Virus record (IMG/VR): IMGVR_UViG_2693429774_000009
Span: 1-11,560 of that record
Direction: 5' to 3' (one strand)
Length of the DNA: 11,560 nt
Source: a virus
Taxonomy: Duplodnaviria > Heunggongvirae > Uroviricota > Caudoviricetes
Notes under the pieces: generated by a model
What the model was told of the DNA's origin: nothing
Seen by the model: only the letters and a program-made list of their open reading frames with translations
Database searches by the model: none
Program-made: the position numbers and the translations under genes
Part shown: positions 2,604 through 11,560 of the stretch, in pieces
Layout: every line of letters starts with the position of its first letter
Numbering within the stretch: the first letter of the stretch is position 1

Positions 2604-3227
2604 CTAACGTGTGATCGCATTCAAAATGTTGTCTGCGATTGACTCTTCCTTGTGGCATTGCACAACCAGAGCGTCATACAGCGGCTTAACAGTGCGTGAC
2701 CAGGTGGGTTGGGTAAGGTTTGGGATTAGCATCGTCACAGCGCGATATGCGGCGCTTGCTGGCATTCTTGAATAACCGACGCCTTTACATCTTCCGCACT
2801 CTTTCTCAGCAACTCTCCCCCACAGCTCTGTTTTGGCTATATCAACCGCACGGCCTGTACCGTGGCAATCTCTGCATCTTGCGCCCGGCGTAGCGGCACT
2901 ACGGCAATAATCCGCATAAGCGAATGTTGCGAGCACTTGCAGTACCTTTGCCTTAGTATTTCCTTCAAGCTTTGCCACGCCACGGTATTTCCCCGATACC
3001 TTGTGTGCAAATTGCATCAGATAGTTGATAGCCTTTTGTTTGTCGTTCTGGCTGAGTTCGTGCTTACCACAGAATACAGCCATTCCGAATCCGGCTTGTG
3101 ATTGCGCCATCCCCATAGCAGCCATCACATCAGTACCGGAAAGAGAGTCAGAAGCCGTGGCCCGTGGTGAGTCGCTCATCATCGGGCTTTTTGGCGAATG
3201 AAATTTAGCTATGCTTTCGAGTCTCAT
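2604..3227 (-). CDS. Q: Late-gene antiterminator Q (lambda-type, 207 aa)
   Basis: [94 protein letters not shown]... is essentially lambda Q including the Cys-rich zinc-binding region. Confidence 0.95.
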
Positions 3228-3586
3228 GCGCCTTCTCCCTGTACCTGAATCAATGTGAGGTTTCCGCAGAACACTGCGCCAGTATCGATATACATCTGGT
3301 TGGCAAATTTGAGTGGTTTCACTGCTGGCGTATGACCAAAGATGAACGTGTCCGCGCCTTTGATTTCTTTCACGATCCCGTCTTGTGAGTTGCTGATTCG
3401 TTCGCGGTTCCAGATTACCTGCTGATGATCAACTGGCTTTCCAAACTCGTATTTATCACAAGGATAGCAATCCCCCAATTTGAGGGATGTTTTATCCCTC
3501 GTTTTAGGGGATTTTCCCTCGTTTTGAGGGATACACCATTCTGAGATGTTTTTATTTGGTCCAAACATGCCGCCTTGCTGCTTGAT
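3224..3586 (-). pseudogene. In-frame deletion fusion: internal fragment of replication initiator O (ori iteron segment) joined to the C-terminal half of a lambda-type Ser/Thr protein phosphatase (orf221/PP-lambda)
   Basis: Minus-strand frame [42 protein letters not shown] (lambda O, iteron-encoded) continues directly into [78 protein letters not shown] (metallophosphatase C-terminus); ends 4 nt into Q start as in lambda. P, ren and nin genes are absent. Confidence 0.7.
3471..3532. repeat. ori-lambda iterons (three O-binding repeats; fourth iteron and the AT-rich region deleted)
   Basis: Three tandem copies of the reverse-complemented lambda iteron: TCCCCCAATTTGAGGGA (3471-3487), ATCCCTCGTTTTAGGGGAT (3494-3512), TCCCTCGTTTTGAGGGAT (3515-3532); deletion junction falls in the fourth iteron (TATCC at about 3462-3466). 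Confidence 0.8.
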
Positions 3587-3751
3587 AAGAGGGATTGGAT
3601 TCCAAAGTTCTCAATGCTGCTTGCTGTTCTTGAATGGGGTGTCGTCGACGACGACATGGCTCGATTGGCACGACAAGTTGCTTCGATTCTCACCAATAAA
3701 AAACGCCCGGCGGCAACCGAGCGTTCTGAACAAATCCAGATGGAATTCTGA
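3587..3751 (+). pseudogene. cII: cII 3' fragment (residues about 44-97) on the inverted segment
   Basis: + strand translation [54 protein letters not shown]-stop matches the lambda CII C-terminus. Confidence 0.8.
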
Positions 3752-3783
3752 GGTTATTACTGGAACTATCAACAGGAGTCATT

Positions 3784-4077
3784 ATGACAAATACAGCAAA
3801 AATACTCAACTTCGGCAGAGGTAACTTTGCCGGACAGGAGCGTAATGTGGCAGATCTCGATGATGGTTACGCCAGACTATCAAATATGCTGCTTGAGGCT
3901 TATTCAGGCGCAGATCTGACCAAGCGACAGTTTAAAGTGCTGCTTGCCATTCTGCGTAGAACCTATGGGTGGAATAAACCAATGGACAGAATCACCGATT
4001 CTCAACTTAGCGAGATTACAAAGTTACCTGTCAAACGGTGCAATGAAGCCAAGTTAGAACTCGTCAGAATGAATATT
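3784..4077 (+). pseudogene. O: O 5' fragment (N-terminal 98 codons of replication initiator O) on the inverted segment
   Basis: MTNTAKILNFGRGNFAGQERNVADLDDGYARLSNMLLEAYSGADLTKRQFKVLLAILRRTYGWNKPMDRITDSQLSEITKLPVKRCNEAKLELVRMNI matches the lambda O N-terminus with its RBS AGGAGTCATTATG; homology stops at 4077. Confidence 0.8.
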
Positions 4078-4206
4078 CCACCTGCTGATCTGCGACTTAT
4101 CAACTCCCACAGCTTCCGCTGTCTTCTCAGTTCCAAGCATTGCGATTTTGTTAAGCAACGCACTCTCGATTCGTAGAGCCTCGTTGCGTTTGTTTGCACG
4201 AACCAT
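4078..4206 (-). pseudogene. cII: cII 5' fragment (first 43 codons) with native RBS
   Basis: Minus strand ATG at 4204-4206 preceded by GGAAATACTTACAT; MVRANKRNEALRIESALLNKIAMLGTEKTAEAVGVDKSQISRW then diverges at the inversion junction and stops after 7 more codons. Confidence 0.8.
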
Positions 4207-4285
4207 ATGTAAGTATTTCCTTAGATAACAATTGATTGAATGTATGCAAATAAATGCATACACCATAGGTGTGGTTTATTTTGAT

Positions 4286-4317
4286 GCCCTTTTTCAGGGC
4301 TGGGATGTGTAAGAGCG
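4286..4317 (-). promoter_or_regulatory. nutR (boxA CGCTCTTAC and boxB GCCCTGAAAAAGGGC) between cro and cII
   Basis: + strand shows reverse complements GCCCTTTTTCAGGGC (4286-4300) and GTAAGAGCG (4309-4317), matching lambda nutR boxB and boxA. Confidence 0.6.
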
Positions 4318-4325
4318 GGAATGTC

Positions 4326-5678
<1,353 letters not shown>

Positions 5679-5728
5679 TCCCCACCTCAATCTCGATAAC
5701 AAAAAAACAAACTATTTTCCGTTTAAAA

Positions 5729-5796
5729 ACAATGGAGTTTGTTTTTCACGCCCCTTTTTACAATATCTCTTGTTTACAACATACAATCTTCCTTGT
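5729..5796. promoter_or_regulatory. Left operator OL1-OL3 (434 type) with pL reading rightward toward N
   Basis: ACAATGGAGTTTGT (5729-5742), ACAATATCTCTTGT (5760-5773), ACAATCTTCCTTGT (5783-5796), all ACAA-N6-TTGT; possible -35 TTTACA at 5773-5778. Confidence 0.7.
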
Positions 5797-5842
5797 AATT
5801 TTAAGCCATCAGCAGGACGCACTGACCACCATTGAAGGTGAG

Positions 5843-5872
5843 GCTCTTAAAAATTAAGCCCTGAAGAAGGGC
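5843..5872 (+). promoter_or_regulatory. nutL (boxA-like GCTCTTAA and boxB GCCCTGAAGAAGGGC)
   Basis: GGCTCTTAAAAATTAAGCCCTGAAGAAGGGC matches lambda nutL boxA/boxB, located in the N leader. Confidence 0.65.
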
Positions 5873-6029
5873 AGCATTCAAAGCAGAAGGCTTTGGTGTG
5901 TGTGATACGAAACGAAGCATTGGCCGGAAGTGCGAATCCGGATTAGCTGCCAATGTGCCATTGCGGGGTGTTTTCGTTCAGGACTACGACTCCCACACAC
6001 AACCAAAGCTAACTGACAGGAGAATCCAG

Positions 6030-6353
6030 ATGGATGCACAAACACGCCGCCGCGAACGTCGCGCAGAGAAACAGGCTCAATGGAAAGCAGCAAATCCCCT
6101 GTTGGTTGGGGTAAGCGCTAAACCAGTTAACCGCCCTATTCTCTCGCTGAATCGCAAACCGAAATCACGAGTAGAAAGCGCACTGAATCCGATAGACCTT
6201 ACGGTGCTGGCTGAATACCACGAACAGATTGAAAGCAACCTGCAACGTATTGAGCGCAAGAATCATCGAGTTTGGTATAGCAAGCCAGGTGAGTTCGGTA
6301 TAACTTGTCAAGGAAGACAAAAGGTTAAAGGGGAATCCATTCCATTGGCATGA
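6030..6353 (+). CDS. N: Antitermination protein N (lambda type, 107 aa)
   Basis: MDAQTRRRERRAEKQAQWKAANPLLVGVSAKPVNRPILSLNRKPKSRVESALNPIDLTVLAEYH... including the arginine-rich boxB-binding motif; ORF-track call 5898.. starts at a spurious upstream Met. Confidence 0.9.
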   Translation: MDAQTRRRERRAEKQAQWKAANPLLVGVSAKPVNRPILSLNRKPKSRVESALNPIDLTVLAEYHEQIESNLQRIERKNHRVWYSKPGEFGITCQGRQKVKGESIPLA

Positions 6354-7231
6354 GGTACGTAATGAAGAAGATTGATTACAAGTCCATACCAAAACCAATA
6401 GACTCAGCATCAGAGCGAAAAAAACACAAAAAAGAGGCTGAAAAATTAGCAAATTATATCAGTTTTATTAGAAACAATGCTCACGGCGATGGCGACAAGA
6501 AGTTGCTTTCAGATGCTCGGACCCAAGCGTTCGGTATACTTCGTAAGCAGATGCAATATCGTCTTCATCCTGGCTACATAATTGAAATTCGCCCTACTGA
6601 AAGACAATTGTTCTTATTAAACTCTGTCTTTGACTTTGTAAACGTAGTTGGAGATCTTATCGACAGGTCTGTAGATAAGGATCCTGATACAAATAGTTTT
6701 CTTCTAACAAATAAAGAATACTTATATGGTAAATTCGGTATAAACGGATGGCAAAAATATGTACGCTTCTTACGTGCATTCGTTGATGCGTATAAAAATT
6801 CCGACATGATTTATACATATTTGCCTGGTGGTGATAATTGTACGCTTTCGGCAGACAATAGAATATTCATACCTGTACTTGGTCTTGGGCTGATTAATGC
6901 AGTAAATGAAAAAGATGTTATAATTGTTAAGCAGTGGCGAAAATATGAGGGATATAGATATCTGCCATGCTTTGATATATTAAAAATACAGAATAAATTC
7001 TATGTAAAAATTAAATATAAAGAAGATATTTTCTTCCTCAGAAAAAACATAGATCTTTTACAAGAACTTTCTGGTACAATAGATGTCATCTTAGGTTCTA
7101 GGTTTATAAAAGAACTGAAAGAAAGCAGGTCTTTCTCTCGTGTAGAGATAAGCGAGTCAGAGTTATGGGGTATATCAAATAATCCTGTAAACCACGCTCA
7201 CCAACGAAACCCAAACAAAAAGTGGTCATAA
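6350..7231 (+). CDS. Hypothetical protein (293 aa; likely true start at 6362 giving 289 aa), AT-rich cargo gene replacing the lambda ral/sieB region
   Basis: Long ORF with ATG overlapping N stop (ATGA) and a second ATG at 6362 preceded by GAGG; markedly lower GC than flanking N and ea10; Lys/Ile/Asn/Tyr-rich, no TM segments, no motif recognised. Confidence 0.6.
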   Translation: MRYVMKKIDYKSIPKPIDSASERKKHKKEAEKLANYISFIRNNAHGDGDKKLLSDARTQAFGILRKQMQYRLHPGYIIEIRPTERQLFLLNSVFDFVNVVGDLIDRSVDKDPDTNSFLLTNKEYLYGKFGINGWQKYVRFLRAFVDAYKNSDMIYTYLPGGDNCTLSADNRIFIPVLGLGLINAVNEKDVIIVKQWRKYEGYRYLPCFDILKIQNKFYVKIKYKEDIFFLRKNIDLLQELSGTIDVILGSRFIKELKESRSFSRVEISESELWGISNNPVNHAHQRNPNKKWS

Positions 7232-7373
7232 CCCGCTCAGGCGGATTTCATTTTCACGCAAACAACAGAATAAACACAGCGCTGTGTATTCATTCCAACG
7301 AGTGAATACACGGAGCAATGTCGCTCGTAACTAAACAGGAGCCGACTTGTTCTGATTATTGGAAATCTTCTTT

Positions 7374-7400
7374 GCCCTCCAAGATGAGGGCGATTTTTTA
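7374..7400 (+). terminator. Putative rho-independent terminator between the cargo ORF and ea10
   Basis: GCCCTC (7374-7379) loop CAAGAT, GAGGGC (7386-7391) followed by GATTTTTTA. Confidence 0.35.
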
Positions 7401-7419
7401 TCTGTGAGGATATGAACAG

Positions 7420-7788
7420 ATGTCAAACATCAAAAAATACATCATTGATTACGACTGGAAAGCATCAATAGAAATTGAAATCGACCATGACGTAATGACA
7501 GAGGAAAAACTTCACCAGATTAATAATTTCTGGTCAGACTCTGAATACCGACTCAATAAACACGGCTCTGTATTAAATGCTGTATTAATCATGCTGGCGC
7601 AACATGCTCTGCTTATAGCAATTTCAAGCGACTTAAATGCATATGGTGTTGTGTGTGAGTTCGACTGGAATGATGGAAATGGTCAGGAAGGATGGCCTCC
7701 AATGGATGGTAGTGAAGGAATAAGAATTACCGATATCGATACATCAGGAATATTTGATTCAGATGATATGACTATCAAGGCCGCCTGA
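7420..7788 (+). CDS. ea10: Ea10-like protein (lambda early gene, 122 aa)
   Basis: MSNIKKYIIDYDWKASIEIEIDHDVMTEEKLHQINNFWSDSEYRLNKHGS... recalled as lambda Ea10; position upstream of cIII matches lambda. Confidence 0.8.
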   Translation: MSNIKKYIIDYDWKASIEIEIDHDVMTEEKLHQINNFWSDSEYRLNKHGSVLNAVLIMLAQHALLIAISSDLNAYGVVCEFDWNDGNGQEGWPPMDGSEGIRITDIDTSGIFDSDDMTIKAA

Positions 7789-7860
7789 GCGCGGCGTTAC
7801 CGCATACCAATTACGCTTCACTCGAGGCGTTTTTCGTTATGTATAAATAAGGAGCACACC

Positions 7861-8025
7861 ATGCAATATGCCATTGCAGGGTGGCCTGTTGCTGGCTGCC
7901 CTTCCGAATCTTTACTTGAACGAATCACCCGTAAATTACGTGACGGATGGAAACGCCTTATCGACATACTTAATCAGCCAGGAGTCCCAAAAAATGGATC
8001 AAACAATTATGGCTATCCAGACTAA
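7861..8025 (+). CDS. cIII: CIII, FtsH inhibitor stabilising CII (54 aa; below ORF-track size cutoff)
   Basis: ATG at 7861 after AAGGAG; translation [54 protein letters not shown]-stop matches lambda CIII. Confidence 0.85.
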   Translation: MQYAIAGWPVAGCPSESLLERITRKLRDGWKRLIDILNQPGVPKNGSNNYGYPD

Positions 8026-8137
8026 ATTCACTATCGCCACTTTTATTGGCGATGAAAAGATGTTTCGTGAGGCCGTCGACGCTTATAAAAAATGGATATT
8101 AATACTGAAACTGAGATCAAGCAAAAGCATTCACTAA
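7994..8137 (+). CDS. kil: Kil (host killing / FtsZ inhibitor, 47 aa)
   Basis: Internal Met of ORF 7868..8137: [47 protein letters not shown] matches lambda Kil; overlaps cIII 3' end as in lambda. Confidence 0.8.
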
Positions 8138-8508
8138 CCCCCTTTCCTGTTTTCCTAATCAGCCCGGCATTTCGCGGGCGATATTTTCACAGCTATTTCA
8201 GGAGTTCGGCCATGAACGCTTATTACATTCAGGATCGTCTTGAGGCTCAGAGCTGGGCGCGTCACTACCAGCAGATAGCCCGTGAAGAGAAAGAGGCAGA
8301 ACTGGCAGACGACATGGAAAAAGGCCTGCCCCAGCACCTGTTTGAATCGCTATGCATCGGTCATTTGCAACGCCACGGGGCCAGCAAAAAAGCCATTACC
8401 CGTGCGTTTGATGACGATGTTGAGTTTCAGGAGCGCATGGCAGAACACATCCGGTACATGGTTGAAACCATTGCTCACCATCAGGTTGATATTGATTCAG
8501 AGGTATAA
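8092..8508 (+). CDS. gam: Gam, RecBCD inhibitor (138-aa long form; short form would start at 8212)
   Basis: ...[60 protein letters not shown]...[10 protein letters not shown] matches lambda Gam. Confidence 0.9.
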
Positions 8509-8513
8509 AACGG

Positions 8514-9299
8514 ATGAGTACAGCACTCGCAACGCTGGCAGGGAAGCTGGCTGAACGTGTCGGCATGGATTCTGTCGACCCACAGGAACTGATCACCACT
8601 CTTCGCCAGACGGCATTTAAAGGCGATGCCAGCGATGCGCAGTTCATCGCATTGTTGATCGTCGCCAACCAGTACGGCCTTAATCCGTGGACGAAAGAAA
8701 TTTACGCCTTCCCTGATAAGCAGAACGGCATCGTTCCGGTGGTGGGCGTTGATGGCTGGTCCCGCATCATCAATGAAAACCAGCAGTTTGATGGCATGGA
8801 CTTTGAGCAGGACAATGAATCCTGTACATGCCGGATTTACCGCAAGGACCGTAATCATCCGATCTGCGTTACCGAATGGATGGATGAATGCCGCCGCGAA
8901 CCATTCAAAACCCGCGAAGGCAGAGAAATCACGGGGCCGTGGCAGTCGCATCCTAAACGGATGTTACGGCATAAAGCTATGATTCAGTGTGCCCGTCTGG
9001 CCTTCGGATTTGCTGGTATCTATGACAAGGATGAAGCCGAGCGCATTGTCGAAAATACTGCATACACTGCAGAACGCCAGCCGGAACGCGACATCACTCC
9101 GGTTAACGATGAAACCATGCAGGAGATTAACACTCTGCTAATCGCCCTGGATAAAACATGGGATGACGACTTATTGCCGCTCTGTTCCCAGATATTTCGC
9201 CGCGACATTCGCGCATCGTCAGAACTGACACAGGCCGAAGCAGTGAAAGCTCTTGGATTCCTGAAACAGAAAGCCACTGAGCAGAAGGTGGCAGCATGA
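8514..9299 (+). CDS. bet: Bet (Red-beta single-strand annealing protein, 261 aa)
   Basis: [72 protein letters not shown]... matches lambda Bet. Confidence 0.95.
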
Positions 9300-9976
9300 C
9301 ACCGGACATTATCCTGCAGCGTACCGGGATCGACGTGAGAGCTGTCGAACAGGGGGATGATGCGTGGCACAAATTACGGCTCGGCGTCATCACAGCTTCA
9401 GAAGTTCATAACGTAATAGCAAAACCCCGCTCCGGAAAAAAGTGGCCTGACATGAAAATGTCCTACTTCCACACCCTGCTTGCTGAGGTTTGCACCGGTG
9501 TGGCTCCGGAAGTTAACGCTAAAGCGCTGGCCTGGGGAAAACAGTACGAGAACGACGCCAGAGCCCTGTTTGAGTTCACTTCCGGCGTGAATGTTACTGA
9601 ATCACCGATCATCTATCGCGACGAAAGTATGCGTACCGCCTGCTCTCCAGATGGTTTATGCAGTGACGGCAACGGCCTTGAACTGAAATGCCCGTTTACC
9701 TCCCGGGATTTCATGAAGTTCCGGCTCGGTGGTTTCGAGGCCATAAAGTCAGCTTACATGGCCCAGGTGCAGTACAGCATGTGGGTGACGCGAAAAGATG
9801 CCTGGTACTTTGCCAACTATGACCCGCGTATGAAGCGTGAAGGACTGCATTATGTCGTGGTTGAGCGGGATGAAAAGTACATGGCGGGTTTTGACGAGAT
9901 GGTGCCGGAGTTCATCGAAAAAATGGACGAGGCACTGGCTGAAATTGGTTTTGTATTTGGGGAGCAATGGCGATGA
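9296..9976 (+). CDS. exo: Lambda exonuclease (Red-alpha, 226 aa)
   Basis: [65 protein letters not shown]... matches lambda Exo with a few substitutions; 4-nt overlap with bet. Confidence 0.95.
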
Positions 9977-10155
9977 AGCATCCTCACGATAATATCCGGG
10001 TAGGTGCGATCACTTTCGTCTACTCCGTTACAAAGCGAGGCTGGGTATTTCCCGACCTTTCTGTTATCCAAAATCCACTGAAAGCCCAGCGGCTGGCTGA
10101 GGAGATAAATAATAAACGAGGGGCTGTATGCACAAAGCATCTCCTGTTGAGTTAA
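9967..10155 (+). CDS. Small hypothetical protein, lambda orf60a-like (62 aa)
   Basis: ORF overlapping exo stop (ATG...TGA coupling), [62 protein letters not shown]; recalled as the small ORF following exo in lambda, identity not verified. Confidence 0.55.
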
Positions 10156-10242
10156 GAACGAGCATTGAGATGGCACATATGGGCGCAGATAGCACATGCA
10201 GACGTAACCAATATTCGAATTGAAGAACTGAAAGAACACCAA

Positions 10243-10290: not shown

Positions 10291-10509
10291 ATGTACTTGA
10301 CACTTCAGGAGTGGAACGCACGCCAGCGACGCCCAAGAAGCCTTGAAACAGTTCGTCGATGGGTACGCGAGTGCAGGATATTCCCTCCTCCGGTTAAGGA
10401 TGGAAGAGAGTATCTGTTCCACGAATCAGCGGTAAAGGTTGACTTAAATCGACCAGTAACAGGTAGCCTTTTGAAGAGGATCAGAAATGGGAAGAAGGCG
10501 AAGTCATGA
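10291..10509 (+). CDS. xis: Excisionase Xis (72 aa)
   Basis: MYLTLQEWNARQRRPRSLETVRRWVRECRIFPPPVKDGREYLFHESAVKVDLNRPVTGSLLKRIRNGKKAKS matches lambda Xis; 23-nt overlap with int as in lambda. Confidence 0.93.
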   Translation: MYLTLQEWNARQRRPRSLETVRRWVRECRIFPPPVKDGREYLFHESAVKVDLNRPVTGSLLKRIRNGKKAKS

Positions 10510-11560
10510 GCGCCGGGATTTACCCCCTAACCTTTATATAAGAAACAATGGATATTACTGCTACAGGGACCCAAGGACGGGTAAAGAGTTTGGATTAGGC
10601 CGAGACAGGAGGATAGCAATCACTGAAGCAATACAGGCCAATATTGAGTTACTCTCAGACAGCGGACGCAAATCACTGATAGACAGAATTAAAGGCGGTG
10701 ACGCAATCACTCTTCATGTGTGGCTTGACCGATATGAAACAATCCTCACCGAAAGGGGGATCAGGCCGAAAACTCTACTCGACTACGCCAGCAAAATCAG
10801 GGCAATCCGAAGAAAATTGCCGGACAAACCGCTCACTGACATATCAACGAAAGAAGTGGCAGCAATGCTAAACACCTACGTAGCAGAAGGTAAAGCAGCT
10901 TCCGCAAAATTAATCAGGTCAACCCTTGTTGACGTTTTTCGTGAAGCAATAGCCGAGGGGCATGTGGCAACGAATCCGGTAACAGCAACCCGTACAGCAA
11001 AGTCAGAAGTAAGGCGCTCAAGGCTGACAGCTAATGAGTATGTCGAGATTTACCATGCAGCCGAACCTCTCCCTATCTGGCTAAGGCTGGCGATGGATTT
11101 GGCCGTCGTTACAGGGCAGAGAGTCGGCGATTTGTGCAGAATGAAATGGTCAGACATAAACGACAACCATCTTCACATTAAACAGAGTAAAACAGGGGCT
11201 AAACTCGCCATTCCGCTAACGCTAACGATTGACGCGCTCAATATCTCATTGGCTGATACACTACAGAAATGCAGGGAGGCCAGCAGCAGTGAAACTATAA
11301 TCGCATCAAAGCATCACGATCCGCTTTCCCCGAAAACAGTATCAAAGTATTTTACAAAGGCGAGAAATGCATCTGGCCTCTCATTTGATGGAAACCCGCC
11401 AACATTCCATGAACTGCGTAGCCTGTCAGCGAGGCTATACCGGAACCAGATTGGCGATAAGTTTGCTCAACGTCTTCTCGGGCATAAATCAGATTCAATG
11501 GCGGCGCGGTATAGGGACAGCCGTGGACGGGAATGGGACAAAATTGAAATCGACAAATGA
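10487..11560 (+). CDS. int: Tyrosine integrase Int (357 aa), lambda-family; stop codon is the last triplet of the window
   Basis: MGRRRSHERRDLPPNLYIRNNGYYCYRDPRTGKEFGLGRDRRIAITEAIQANIELL... N-terminal arm-binding domain identical to lambda Int; catalytic motifs (R...HELRSL...LLGH...Y) present; central region diverged from lambda Int. Confidence 0.95.
   Translation: MGRRRSHERRDLPPNLYIRNNGYYCYRDPRTGKEFGLGRDRRIAITEAIQANIELLSDSGRKSLIDRIKGGDAITLHVWLDRYETILTERGIRPKTLLDYASKIRAIRRKLPDKPLTDISTKEVAAMLNTYVAEGKAASAKLIRSTLVDVFREAIAEGHVATNPVTATRTAKSEVRRSRLTANEYVEIYHAAEPLPIWLRLAMDLAVVTGQRVGDLCRMKWSDINDNHLHIKQSKTGAKLAIPLTLTIDALNISLADTLQKCREASSSETIIASKHHDPLSPKTVSKYFTKARNASGLSFDGNPPTFHELRSLSARLYRNQIGDKFAQRLLGHKSDSMAARYRDSRGREWDKIEIDK

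Follow-up and report, generated by a model that had tools for sequence, protein, structure and literature searches.

Gene content of the window

The window, that is, the whole stretch of 11,560 bp that was analyzed, lies beside torS in the draft E. coli genome GCA_001284905.2 (contig CYDV01000007.1) and holds part of a lambdoid prophage; the contig has a single base ahead of the window and does not reach the attL side of the prophage. The exact window is absent from 5426 complete E. coli genomes, the best match among which covers 96% of it in four pieces. Its features are collected in table 1. The prophage also carries effector cargo in the form of the nleB2 N-terminus at 1–144. A tRNA scan of the window gave no match, the sole match in an Rfam scan of the window was the cIII thermoregulator, and a Pfam search returned no match for the Nun-like gene, hex, or a 252-aa low-GC membrane protein.

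Table 1. Features of the window, with identities given as amino acids unless otherwise indicated.
Feature	Coordinates	Strand	Evidence
Rz spanin without its first 7 codons	665–1081	-	1.77-kb deletion junction 1081/1082; endolysin remnant and SASA esterase gene removed
Q late antiterminator, 207 aa, intact	2604–3227	-	203/207 to lambda Q
O fragment with 3/4 ori iterons, fused to NinI C-terminal fragment	3462–3588	-	Deletion junction GGATA
491-bp inversion splitting cII and the O N-terminus	3587–4077		Inverted versus 434, lambda, L001, and L003; 2-nt junction microhomology; two assemblies
434 cro, 71 aa	4326–4541	-	71/71 to 434
OR1–OR3 with pR and pRM	4556–4619		Positions from 434 annotation; no differences versus 434; pR hexamers seen in promoter scan
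434 cI repressor, 210 aa	4645–5277	+	210/210 to phage 434
hex, 434 protein shielding repressor from RecA-stimulated cleavage	5274–5678	+	134/134 to 434; function from PMC3564112
oL3, oL2, oL1, and pL	5729–5801 (oL3 5729–5742, oL2 5760–5773, oL1 5783–5796)	+	Positions from 434 annotation
oL2 sequence			Window form ACAATATCTCTTGT; other form set against it ACAATATTTCTTGT
nutL boxB hairpin	5857–5873	+	434 annotation; GCCCTGAAGAAGGGC present, identical to 434
N antiterminator, 107 aa	6030–6353	+	107/107 to 434
Nun C-terminal-peptide protein by 434 annotation, 289 aa	6362–7231	+	288/289 to 434
Terminator-like hairpin between N and module	7372–7393	+	Coincides with terminator annotated in 434
ea10 (DUF2528)	7420–7788	+	122/122 to 434 and to lambda
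Second terminator-like hairpin	7813–7830	+	Hairpin scan
cIII mRNA thermoregulator, Rfam Lambda_thermo RF01804	7848–7906	+	88.5 bits versus gathering score 50; full-length match
cIII, FtsH inhibitor, 54 aa	7861–8025	+	54/54 to 434, 53/54 to lambda; Pfam Lambda_CIII E = 1.5e-30
kil, FtsZ-ring inhibitor peptide, 47 aa	7994–8137	+	47/47 to 434, 46/47 to lambda; Pfam Lambda_Kil E = 3e-19
gam, RecBCD inhibitor, 138 aa	8092–8508	+	135/138 to lambda; Pfam Gam E = 6e-64
GamS, 98-aa form of gam	Start 8212	+	98/98 to 434
bet, Red-beta single-strand annealing protein, 261 aa	8514–9299	+	261/261 to 434, 260/261 to lambda; Pfam RecT E = 2.7e-33
exo, lambda exonuclease, 226 aa	9296–9976	+	225/226 to 434, 221/226 to lambda; Pfam YqaJ E = 4e-30
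orf60a (DUF1317)	9973–10155	+	ATGA overlap with exo stop
1.9-kb deletion junction, orf63 C-terminus to just upstream of xis	10177–10179		L001 has 1900 bp more; microhomology ATA
xis, 72 aa	10291–10509	+	72/72 to 434
Integrase, 357 aa, torS-torT site	10487–11560	+	267/357 to lambda and 434 Int; DNA identical to L001 and L003; torS directly after

A first-pass annotation, made from the sequence itself, had described cIII, kil, gam, bet, and exo as full length, and this is confirmed by proper start and stop codons and by zero internal stops or frameshifts in all five genes. The Pfam scores for CIII, Kil, Gam, RecT, and YqaJ are all far over the cut-offs, and Exo retains W24, R28, L78, D119, E129, and K131, which we take from the lambda Exo structure to be active-site residues. 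The genes gam, bet, and exo follow one another in this order after N and nutL within the pL operon and are colinear with those of 434 and lambda without gaps; with Exo, Bet, and Gam of the right families and in the right order, the window carries a lambda Red module, which is predicted to be active in recombination. The start–stop overlaps claimed for these genes are present as an ATGA at bet/exo (9296–9299) and as overlaps of 32 nt at cIII/kil and 46 nt at kil/gam, but gam and bet are 5 nt apart; exo and orf60a share a further ATGA (9973–9976). An 89-aa open reading frame from 7868 is merely the longest reading of the kil frame.

The module had also been called near-lambda. Identity to lambda (NC_001416) is indeed high, with 97.8% at the DNA level over 7260–10179 and 97.8–99.6% for the proteins (135/138 to 260/261), and the window shares with lambda the gene overlaps, the cIII RNA thermoregulator, and the Exo active-site residues; it differs from lambda in having 434 immunity, a Nun-like gene in place of sieB and ral, and a defective prophage around them. 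The sequence is, however, really that of phage 434 (OL657226), with which the window shares the order cI-hex-oL/pL-nutL-N-Nun-like-ea10-cIII-kil-gam-bet-exo-orf60a and identical cI, Cro, Hex, and N proteins. Over a 6.1-kb block from the cII N-terminal fragment to orf63 (4076–10179), the window aligns to 434 without gaps and differs at 35 bases. No difference falls in 7861–9363, so that cIII through bet are identical in nucleotide sequence, and the 19 differences within the module (18 synonymous and one non-synonymous) all lie in exo from 9364 on. This places a mosaic breakpoint inside exo near 9364, with exo beyond that point and orf60a coming from another lambdoid lineage that is about 4% divergent. 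Unlike in 434, the genes for replication, lysis, and morphogenesis are missing from the remnant that holds the operon, and the integrase, which is only 75% identical, uses a torS-torT target instead of the lambda site.

Dismantling by deletion and inversion

The prophage had been characterized as otherwise crippled, and a map of the damage relative to phage 434 and to two sister prophages bears this out. The sisters, remnants in strains Z1323HEC0011 and E2 (loci L001 and L003), are both located at torS. P, ren, ninB-ninG, the holin, the endolysin, and the C-terminus of O are deleted, as is the "ea" region between exo and xis. Most nin genes are absent, and O is cut within the ori iterons and joined to a piece of NinI. 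All head and tail genes are deleted save small fragments of J and of the tail-fibre-assembly gene, in a deletion that spans from Rz to these fragments. With its replication, lysis, and virion genes lost, the prophage is defective (cryptic). The accompanying claim that lysogeny-establishment functions are destroyed holds for cII only; cIII, int, and cI are still present.

All of the inactivating lesions are deletions or inversions with 2–5 nt of junction microhomology, and the window contains no point-mutation pseudogenes; the leftover fragments of O, cII, and NinI are 99–100% identical to intact copies. The source, a short-read draft assembly whose contig begins right at the edge of the window, raises the suspicion that the inversion and the deletion junctions arose in assembly and that the prophage is truly intact. 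We consider it extremely improbable, as the 130-aa chimeric O reading frame and a 7.1-kb identical stretch are also present in a second assembly (Logan ERR178178), the junctions lack flanking repeats that could mislead an assembler, and the deletion joining O to NinI is also found in one complete genome. The two assemblies may share reads, so the confirmation is not fully independent. Synthetic or misassembled rearrangements were nonetheless rejected on the basis of the second assembly together with the repeat-free junctions.

Probable recent decay and the fate of the module in relatives

For the intact module the first-pass annotation had offered two explanations, selective retention of Gam, Bet, and Exo for the benefit of the host and recent decay. 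The window differs from the sister remnants at a single base over the 6.1-kb block (1 SNP per 6104 bp), yet the sisters have different deletion sets. Within the module there is no difference at all to the sisters, and at this rate zero changes in 2116 bp have a probability of P = 0.71. About 11.6 kb is left of approximately 44 kb (from the tail-fibre assembly gene to int, as in 434), which gives a 2.1-kb block a chance of roughly 1/4 of surviving. The comparison of synonymous and non-synonymous rates that had been proposed as a check recovered long-term constraint at the level of the phages, with dN/dS of 0.095 versus lambda and 0.014 versus 434 in exo, but it has no power for the time after crippling, for which there are zero substitutions and no pseudogene to serve as a neutral reference; the low dN/dS reflects selection in free-living phages and not in the remnant. 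Because the damage consists of deletions and an inversion only, without point-mutation pseudogenes, selection since crippling is beyond measurement and recent decay is the simplest reading. It is corroborated by the one-base difference to the sisters, by the type of the lesions, and by the 99–100% identity of the fragments.

Selective retention, in contrast, found no support. The genes cro, cI, hex, N, ea10, orf60a, xis, int, and Q and the Nun-like gene are intact as well, and the module is deleted, disrupted by insertion sequences, or frameshifted in relatives. A remnant in KSC64 with the same integrase lacks both Red and immunity. A fuller 434-like prophage of O103:H2 has an IS3 between kil and gam and an IS3 inside exo, and IS3-interrupted modules occur in the O103:H2 and O121 lineages. 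One relative has a frameshifted exo and another a frameshifted kil, and a frameshifted module is found in one IMG/VR relative. Lambda-type Red DNA has matches in 4287 of the 5426 complete E. coli genomes (about four in five), and lambda-type Red adjoins imm434 in 100 of 207 complete genomes and in four of 19 other loci with enough flank. Preferential retention of the module across decays was not found in what is a small sample, with relatives counted by a kinship-blind tally.

Domestication would mean that the host retains Gam, Bet, and Exo for SOS-induced repair of double-strand breaks or for exchange with lambdoid phages and prophages, including the reshuffling of effectors such as those of type III secretion. 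Several observations are in keeping with it: three differently deleted torS remnants (the window, Z1323HEC0011, and E2) share an intact and identical module, Red-beta drives exchange between phages and defective prophages (PMC3945230), the prophage carries part of an effector gene, and defective stx-negative O157 prophages with exo-bet-gam have been described (PMC8046923). The latter, the Sp15-like prophages of O157:H7, resemble the window as decayed lambdoid prophages that kept exo-bet-gam, but most of them are without cI, whereas the window has cI and the operators. The three torS remnants are, however, close relatives and do not count as independent trials, the zero substitutions leave nothing for a selection test, and adjacent genes without a plausible host role are equally intact. 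Given also the losses and disruptions among relatives, and the presence of Red beside imm434 in only a part of the loci, we regard domestication as quite unlikely; nothing shows that the genes are kept for a benefit to the host.

The reading that we favor, with a probability of about 80%, is that the stretch from cIII to exo forms the distal portion of the early-left (pL) operon in a lambdoid prophage of the 434 type, which illegitimate deletions and one inversion are taking apart, and that the Red, kil, and cIII genes are intact since they have not yet been struck, without demonstrable keeping. Intact Red genes in a decayed prophage are a common situation that is already well understood.

The 434 immunity region and the predicted consequences of derepression

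The module had been placed under the control of the 434 repressor, which fits the sequence: cI, all OR operators, oL1, oL3, nutL, and N are those of 434. A promoter scan of the window found pR but not pL, whose hexamers are under the threshold of the scan, and the position of pL is therefore based on the 434 annotation. Of the six 14-bp imm434 operators with their ACAA...TTGT half-sites, OR1–OR3, oL1, and oL3 are identical to 434. The exception is oL2, which keeps both outer half-sites but departs from 434 at two bases in its center, of which one is private to the strain. This base, a T-to-C change at 5767 (position 8 of 14 in oL2), is the sole private substitution of the strain across the 6.1-kb block; it falls within the inner non-contacted 4 bp of the operator and puts a G·C pair there. 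None of the 107 complete E. coli genomes with a matching oL region has the C variant, and neither do the record of laboratory phage 434 and 38 other imm434 loci, comprising the two sister remnants and 36 metagenome and viral contig loci that were collected by degenerate oL2 scans and all have T. A metagenome scan for the C variant and a degenerate C-variant scan of species-representative genomes gave no match either.

[quoted passage not shown] A more specific proposal is that the C weakens repressor occupancy and makes pL leaky, with low constitutive levels of N, Gam, Bet, and Exo and a strain that would be naturally hyper-recombinogenic, the change perhaps having been selected after the loss of lethal late functions; we think this very unlikely. 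The private substitution is the one item that recent dismantling leaves without explanation.

By analogy with 434 and lambda, the 434 repressor and Hex would be made from pRM in a resting cell, oL1–oL3 and OR1–OR2 would be occupied, and the module would be silent. DNA damage would lead to RecA-stimulated cleavage of the repressor and to the opening of pL, and N acting at nutL would allow RNA polymerase to pass the terminator-like hairpins at 7372 and 7813, giving rise to the Nun-like protein, Ea10, CIII, Kil, Gam, Bet, Exo, Xis, and Int. Gam is expected to block RecBCD, Exo and Bet to carry out single-strand-annealing recombination, and Kil to halt FtsZ-ring formation. Since O, P, the holin, and the endolysin are gone and ori is incomplete, neither replication nor lysis would follow, and cells would be predicted to filament transiently and to die if derepression lasts. 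Intact Cro or renewed cI could close pL again, and Xis and Int may excise the remnant.

The potential toxicity of Kil that the first-pass annotation had pointed out is established biology, and would be expected here by analogy with an immunity-plus-pL defective prophage, derepression of which causes kil-dependent filamentation and death (PMC3961180). A close counterpart is the engineered defective prophage of recombineering strains, lambda cI857 with cro-bioA deleted (PMC3961180), which likewise has immunity and a pL operon with N, kil, gam, bet, exo, xis, and int but no replication or lysis genes, and which yields Red activity in addition to kil-dependent filamentation and killing when derepressed. 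The window differs from it in being natural and the product of spontaneous deletions, in still having cro and Q, and in having a wild-type 434 repressor and Hex, so that the inducer would be SOS and not heat.

A rival explanation is a constraint resembling addiction, in which this toxicity makes deletions of cI or of the operators that spare pL-N-kil lethal, the cI-pL-kil segment is thereby shielded, and gam-bet-exo ride along between kil and int. Consistent with it, the window has retained cI, hex, N, kil, and the operators in intact form, and the one relative with a cI nonsense mutation (L040) has no lambda-type kil downstream, a pattern that is, however, a single case. RacR of the Rac prophage of E. 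coli K-12 is essential by silencing toxic genes of that prophage. Rac (recET, kilR, racR; for KilR, PMC12482147) resembles the window in being cryptic and in combining an exonuclease/annealase pair with a division inhibitor under a prophage repressor, but RecE/RecT and KilR are not sequence homologues of Exo and Kil, and Rac is far older and more diverged. The constraint would, however, guard cI relative to kil and not Red: deletions of gam-exo only or from kil to int would be harmless, such a deletion has already removed the 1.9-kb ea region, and KSC64 shows that joint loss of immunity and module is possible. We therefore consider it an unlikely reason for the presence of Red, and return to recent dismantling that has not yet reached the module.

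As matters stand the finding carries little weight, given that Red DNA is so widespread in E. coli that Red-keeping defective prophages have already been described, and that the effects of derepression in an immunity-plus-pL remnant were established decades ago. Intactness on its own is not readable as selection. The window is, nevertheless, a clean illustration that lambdoid prophages are dismantled fast by deletion rather than by point mutation. Should the change in oL2 indeed relax repression, the strain would be a recombineering host of natural origin, as it were, and this would bear on the reshuffling of effector prophages in pathogenic E. coli.

Source and damage of the remnant

The window corresponds to positions 2–11561 of CYDV01000007.1 (draft E. 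coli assembly GCA_001284905.2), and the Logan assembly of run ERR178178 contains a 7.1-kb stretch of it base for base. The integrase gene forms the end of the window, with torS directly 3' of it. Among 5426 complete E. coli genomes, the closest remnants, both at torS, are those of strains Z1323HEC0011 (L001) and E2 (L003), which are 99.9–100% identical and differ in their deletions. The first bases of the window fall within nleB2, which encodes a type III effector; the remnant is therefore the regulatory end of a lambdoid prophage that carries effectors. In the sister loci, nleH, cif, fragments of nleC, and espJ lie further left.

Mapping against Escherichia phage 434 (OL657226), bacteriophage lambda (NC_001416), L001, and L003, together with inspection of the junctions, confirmed the first-pass annotation in that the prophage is otherwise crippled; the damage consists solely of rearrangements. 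Rightward of the nleB2 N-terminus lie part of the tail-fibre assembly gene, a 148-bp J fragment, and Rz lacking its first seven codons; the entire head and tail region is missing between Rz and J. At 1081/1082, a deletion of 1.77 kb took out the endolysin remnant together with an esterase gene; the window has no holin. Q is intact (203/207 identical to lambda), and the low-GC pair following it, at the position where Stx phages carry their toxin genes, encodes a multi-pass membrane protein of 252 aa, which source annotations place in the STM1630/TfpB family and which had no Pfam match in our scan, and a 52-aa DUF3927 protein. Another deletion, which L001 shares, runs from within ori into ninI and eliminated the O C-terminus, P, ren, and ninB–ninG. 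A 491-bp inversion is unique to the window strain, being found in two assemblies and in none of the complete genomes; it has 2 nt of junction microhomology and no flanking inverted repeats, and it created a 130-aa chimeric O ORF (3784–4176). Finally, a 1.9-kb deletion at 10177–10179 removed the orf63–xis interval. Rearrangement junctions have only 2–5 nt of microhomology, and since the surviving fragments are 99–100% identical to intact copies, the window contains no point-mutation pseudogenes.

Features of the window and of two related loci (identities are for proteins unless stated)
Feature	Position	Strand	Observation
nleB2 N-terminus	1–144	minus	Contig starts 1 base earlier
Low-GC (about 33%) gene pair	1364–2366	minus	Directly downstream of Q
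ori iterons (lambda-type)	3471–3532		3/4 survive; O-to-ninI deletion ends inside the fourth (5-nt GGATA microhomology)
491-bp inversion	3587–4077		Spans cII C-terminus, oop region, O N-terminus; splits cII and O N-terminus
oL2 operator (14 bp)	5760–5773		ACAATATCTCTTGT; T-to-C at 5767 (position 8)
289-aa Nun-like gene	6362–7231		Between N and ea10; 288/289 vs 434 gene annotated with Nun-like C-terminal peptide
cIII mRNA thermoregulator	7848–7906		Present
cIII	7861–8025		54/54 vs 434; 53/54 vs lambda
kil	7994–8137		47/47 vs 434; 46/47 vs lambda
gam	8092–8508 (GamS from 8212)		98/98 vs 434; 135/138 vs lambda
bet	8514–9299		261/261 vs 434; 260/261 vs lambda
exo	9296–9976		225/226 vs 434; 221/226 vs lambda
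L007 (strain KSC64)	5659–21301 of L007		torT–torS integrase/excisionase attached to another, partly deleted phage whose tail genes are of baseplate type
Two copies of one IS3-family element, L009 (strain CEC12044)	15857–19672 of L009		One between kil and gam, one splitting exo

Integrity and control of the cIII–exo module

As first proposed, cIII, kil, gam, bet, and exo are full length: each has a proper start and stop and no internal stop, all five families were confirmed by Pfam, and the catalytic and DNA-binding residues of Exo are conserved. ATGA overlaps occur at bet/exo and exo/orf60a, the overlaps at cIII/kil and kil/gam are more extensive, and gam and bet are separated by 5 nt. By every sequence criterion tested, the module belongs to the lambda Red/434 pL-operon family. 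There are zero nucleotide differences from phage 434 across 7861–9363, and all 19 differences in the module fall in exo after 9364, where similarity is about 96%. This sharp drop is a typical lambdoid mosaic boundary; given 31 differences in the 800 bp at 9364–10163 and none upstream, the 3' portion of exo, like orf60a, comes from another lambdoid lineage.

Regulatory sites were placed by transfer from the detailed annotation of phage 434. No difference from 434 occurs in cI, N, nutL, the three OR operators, oL1, or oL3, and the N–cIII interval contains two terminator-like hairpins; expression of the module should therefore depend on inactivation of the repressor as well as on antitermination by N. 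Hex, which is co-expressed with cI, dampens RecA-stimulated cleavage of the 434 repressor (PMC3564112). Beyond these identities, the hairpins, and the Hex literature, the proposed steps draw on lambda and 434 biology: an induced cell would make Kil, Gam, Bet, Exo, Xis, and Int and could neither replicate the element nor lyse. The suggestion that Kil would be toxic upon pL derepression is sound though not new, having been documented for an immunity-plus-pL defective prophage (PMC3961180). In an imm434 element without lambda-type kil or Red downstream (IMG/VR contig 2595698466_000001), cI carries a nonsense mutation (W58 to stop), a single case that fits repressor loss being tolerated only where kil is absent. 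Between N and ea10, where lambda has sieB and ral, the window has the Nun-like gene, which has no Pfam match.

The oL2 base change is the sole difference from L001 and L003 across 6.1 kb. The equivalent base is T in 38 other imm434 loci (36 metagenome/viral contigs plus L001 and L003) and in the laboratory phage 434 record, and the C is absent from the 107 complete genomes carrying the region, none of which matches the window perfectly. Position 8 lies within the inner, non-contacted four base pairs, and changes in the non-contacted region shift 434 repressor affinity up to 50-fold (PMC1636474); the substitution might weaken repressor binding. The probability of one random change in 6104 bp falling in any of the three oL operators is 0.007, a post hoc value for a single base in a draft assembly, and a functional consequence is unlikely.

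Retention of the module and its fate in relatives

The module lies within a 6104-bp block (4076–10179) that aligns colinearly and gap-free with 434. Equally intact in this block are cro, cI, hex, N, ea10, orf60a, and the Nun-like gene; outside it, xis, int, and Q are likewise intact. This block differs from L001 and L003 by one base, and at that rate zero changes in the 2116-bp module are expected (P = 0.71). The dN/dS ratio is low (~0.1 versus lambda and 0.014 for exo versus 434), which reflects constraint among viable phages and is uninformative on the period since this copy lost autonomy. Because about 11.6 kb is left of roughly 44 kb (tail-fibre assembly gene to int in 434 coordinates), the probability that any given 2-kb block survives by chance is about one in four.

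Relatives show that the module is expendable. KSC64 has an identical integrase and excisionase at torS in a remnant from which both cIII–exo and the immunity region are missing. There, xis is directly adjoined by N, ral, and part of ea10, and the different phage type attached to this integrase shows that the integration module is freely swapped between phage types. The O103:H2 strain CEC12044 carries a 99.9% identical 434-like prophage at ybhC, the lambda attachment site; it is much more complete, keeping O, P, nin genes, Q, holin, lysozyme, and Rz, and its kil–exo region is interrupted by two IS3-family copies. In the same match list, two more genomes give three-piece matches that cover two IS3 transposase genes, and seven give two-piece matches that cover one; these nine are O103, O121, and related genomes. 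Among IMG/VR relatives, exo has lost 1 nt in one and kil has gained 1 nt in another. Of the 207 complete genomes with imm434, only 100 have colinear cro–exo, and lambda-type Red was found in 4/19 imm434 contigs with enough flank from viral and metagenome collections.

With neighbours equally intact and the module lost or broken in relatives, selective retention for host benefit, one of two explanations offered in the first-pass annotation, is unsupported; the other, recent decay, is supported. The presence of lambda-type Red is itself unremarkable, since 4287 of the 5426 complete genomes have DNA matches to it. Red-beta has been documented to act in exchanges of phages with defective prophages (PMC3945230), which makes a benefit of Red to the host or to mobile elements conceivable; the window itself gives no evidence for one. 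In overall layout the remnant parallels the engineered defective prophage of recombineering strains, and it also resembles naturally decayed O157 prophages that keep exo–bet–gam (PMC8046923); this kind of element is already known.
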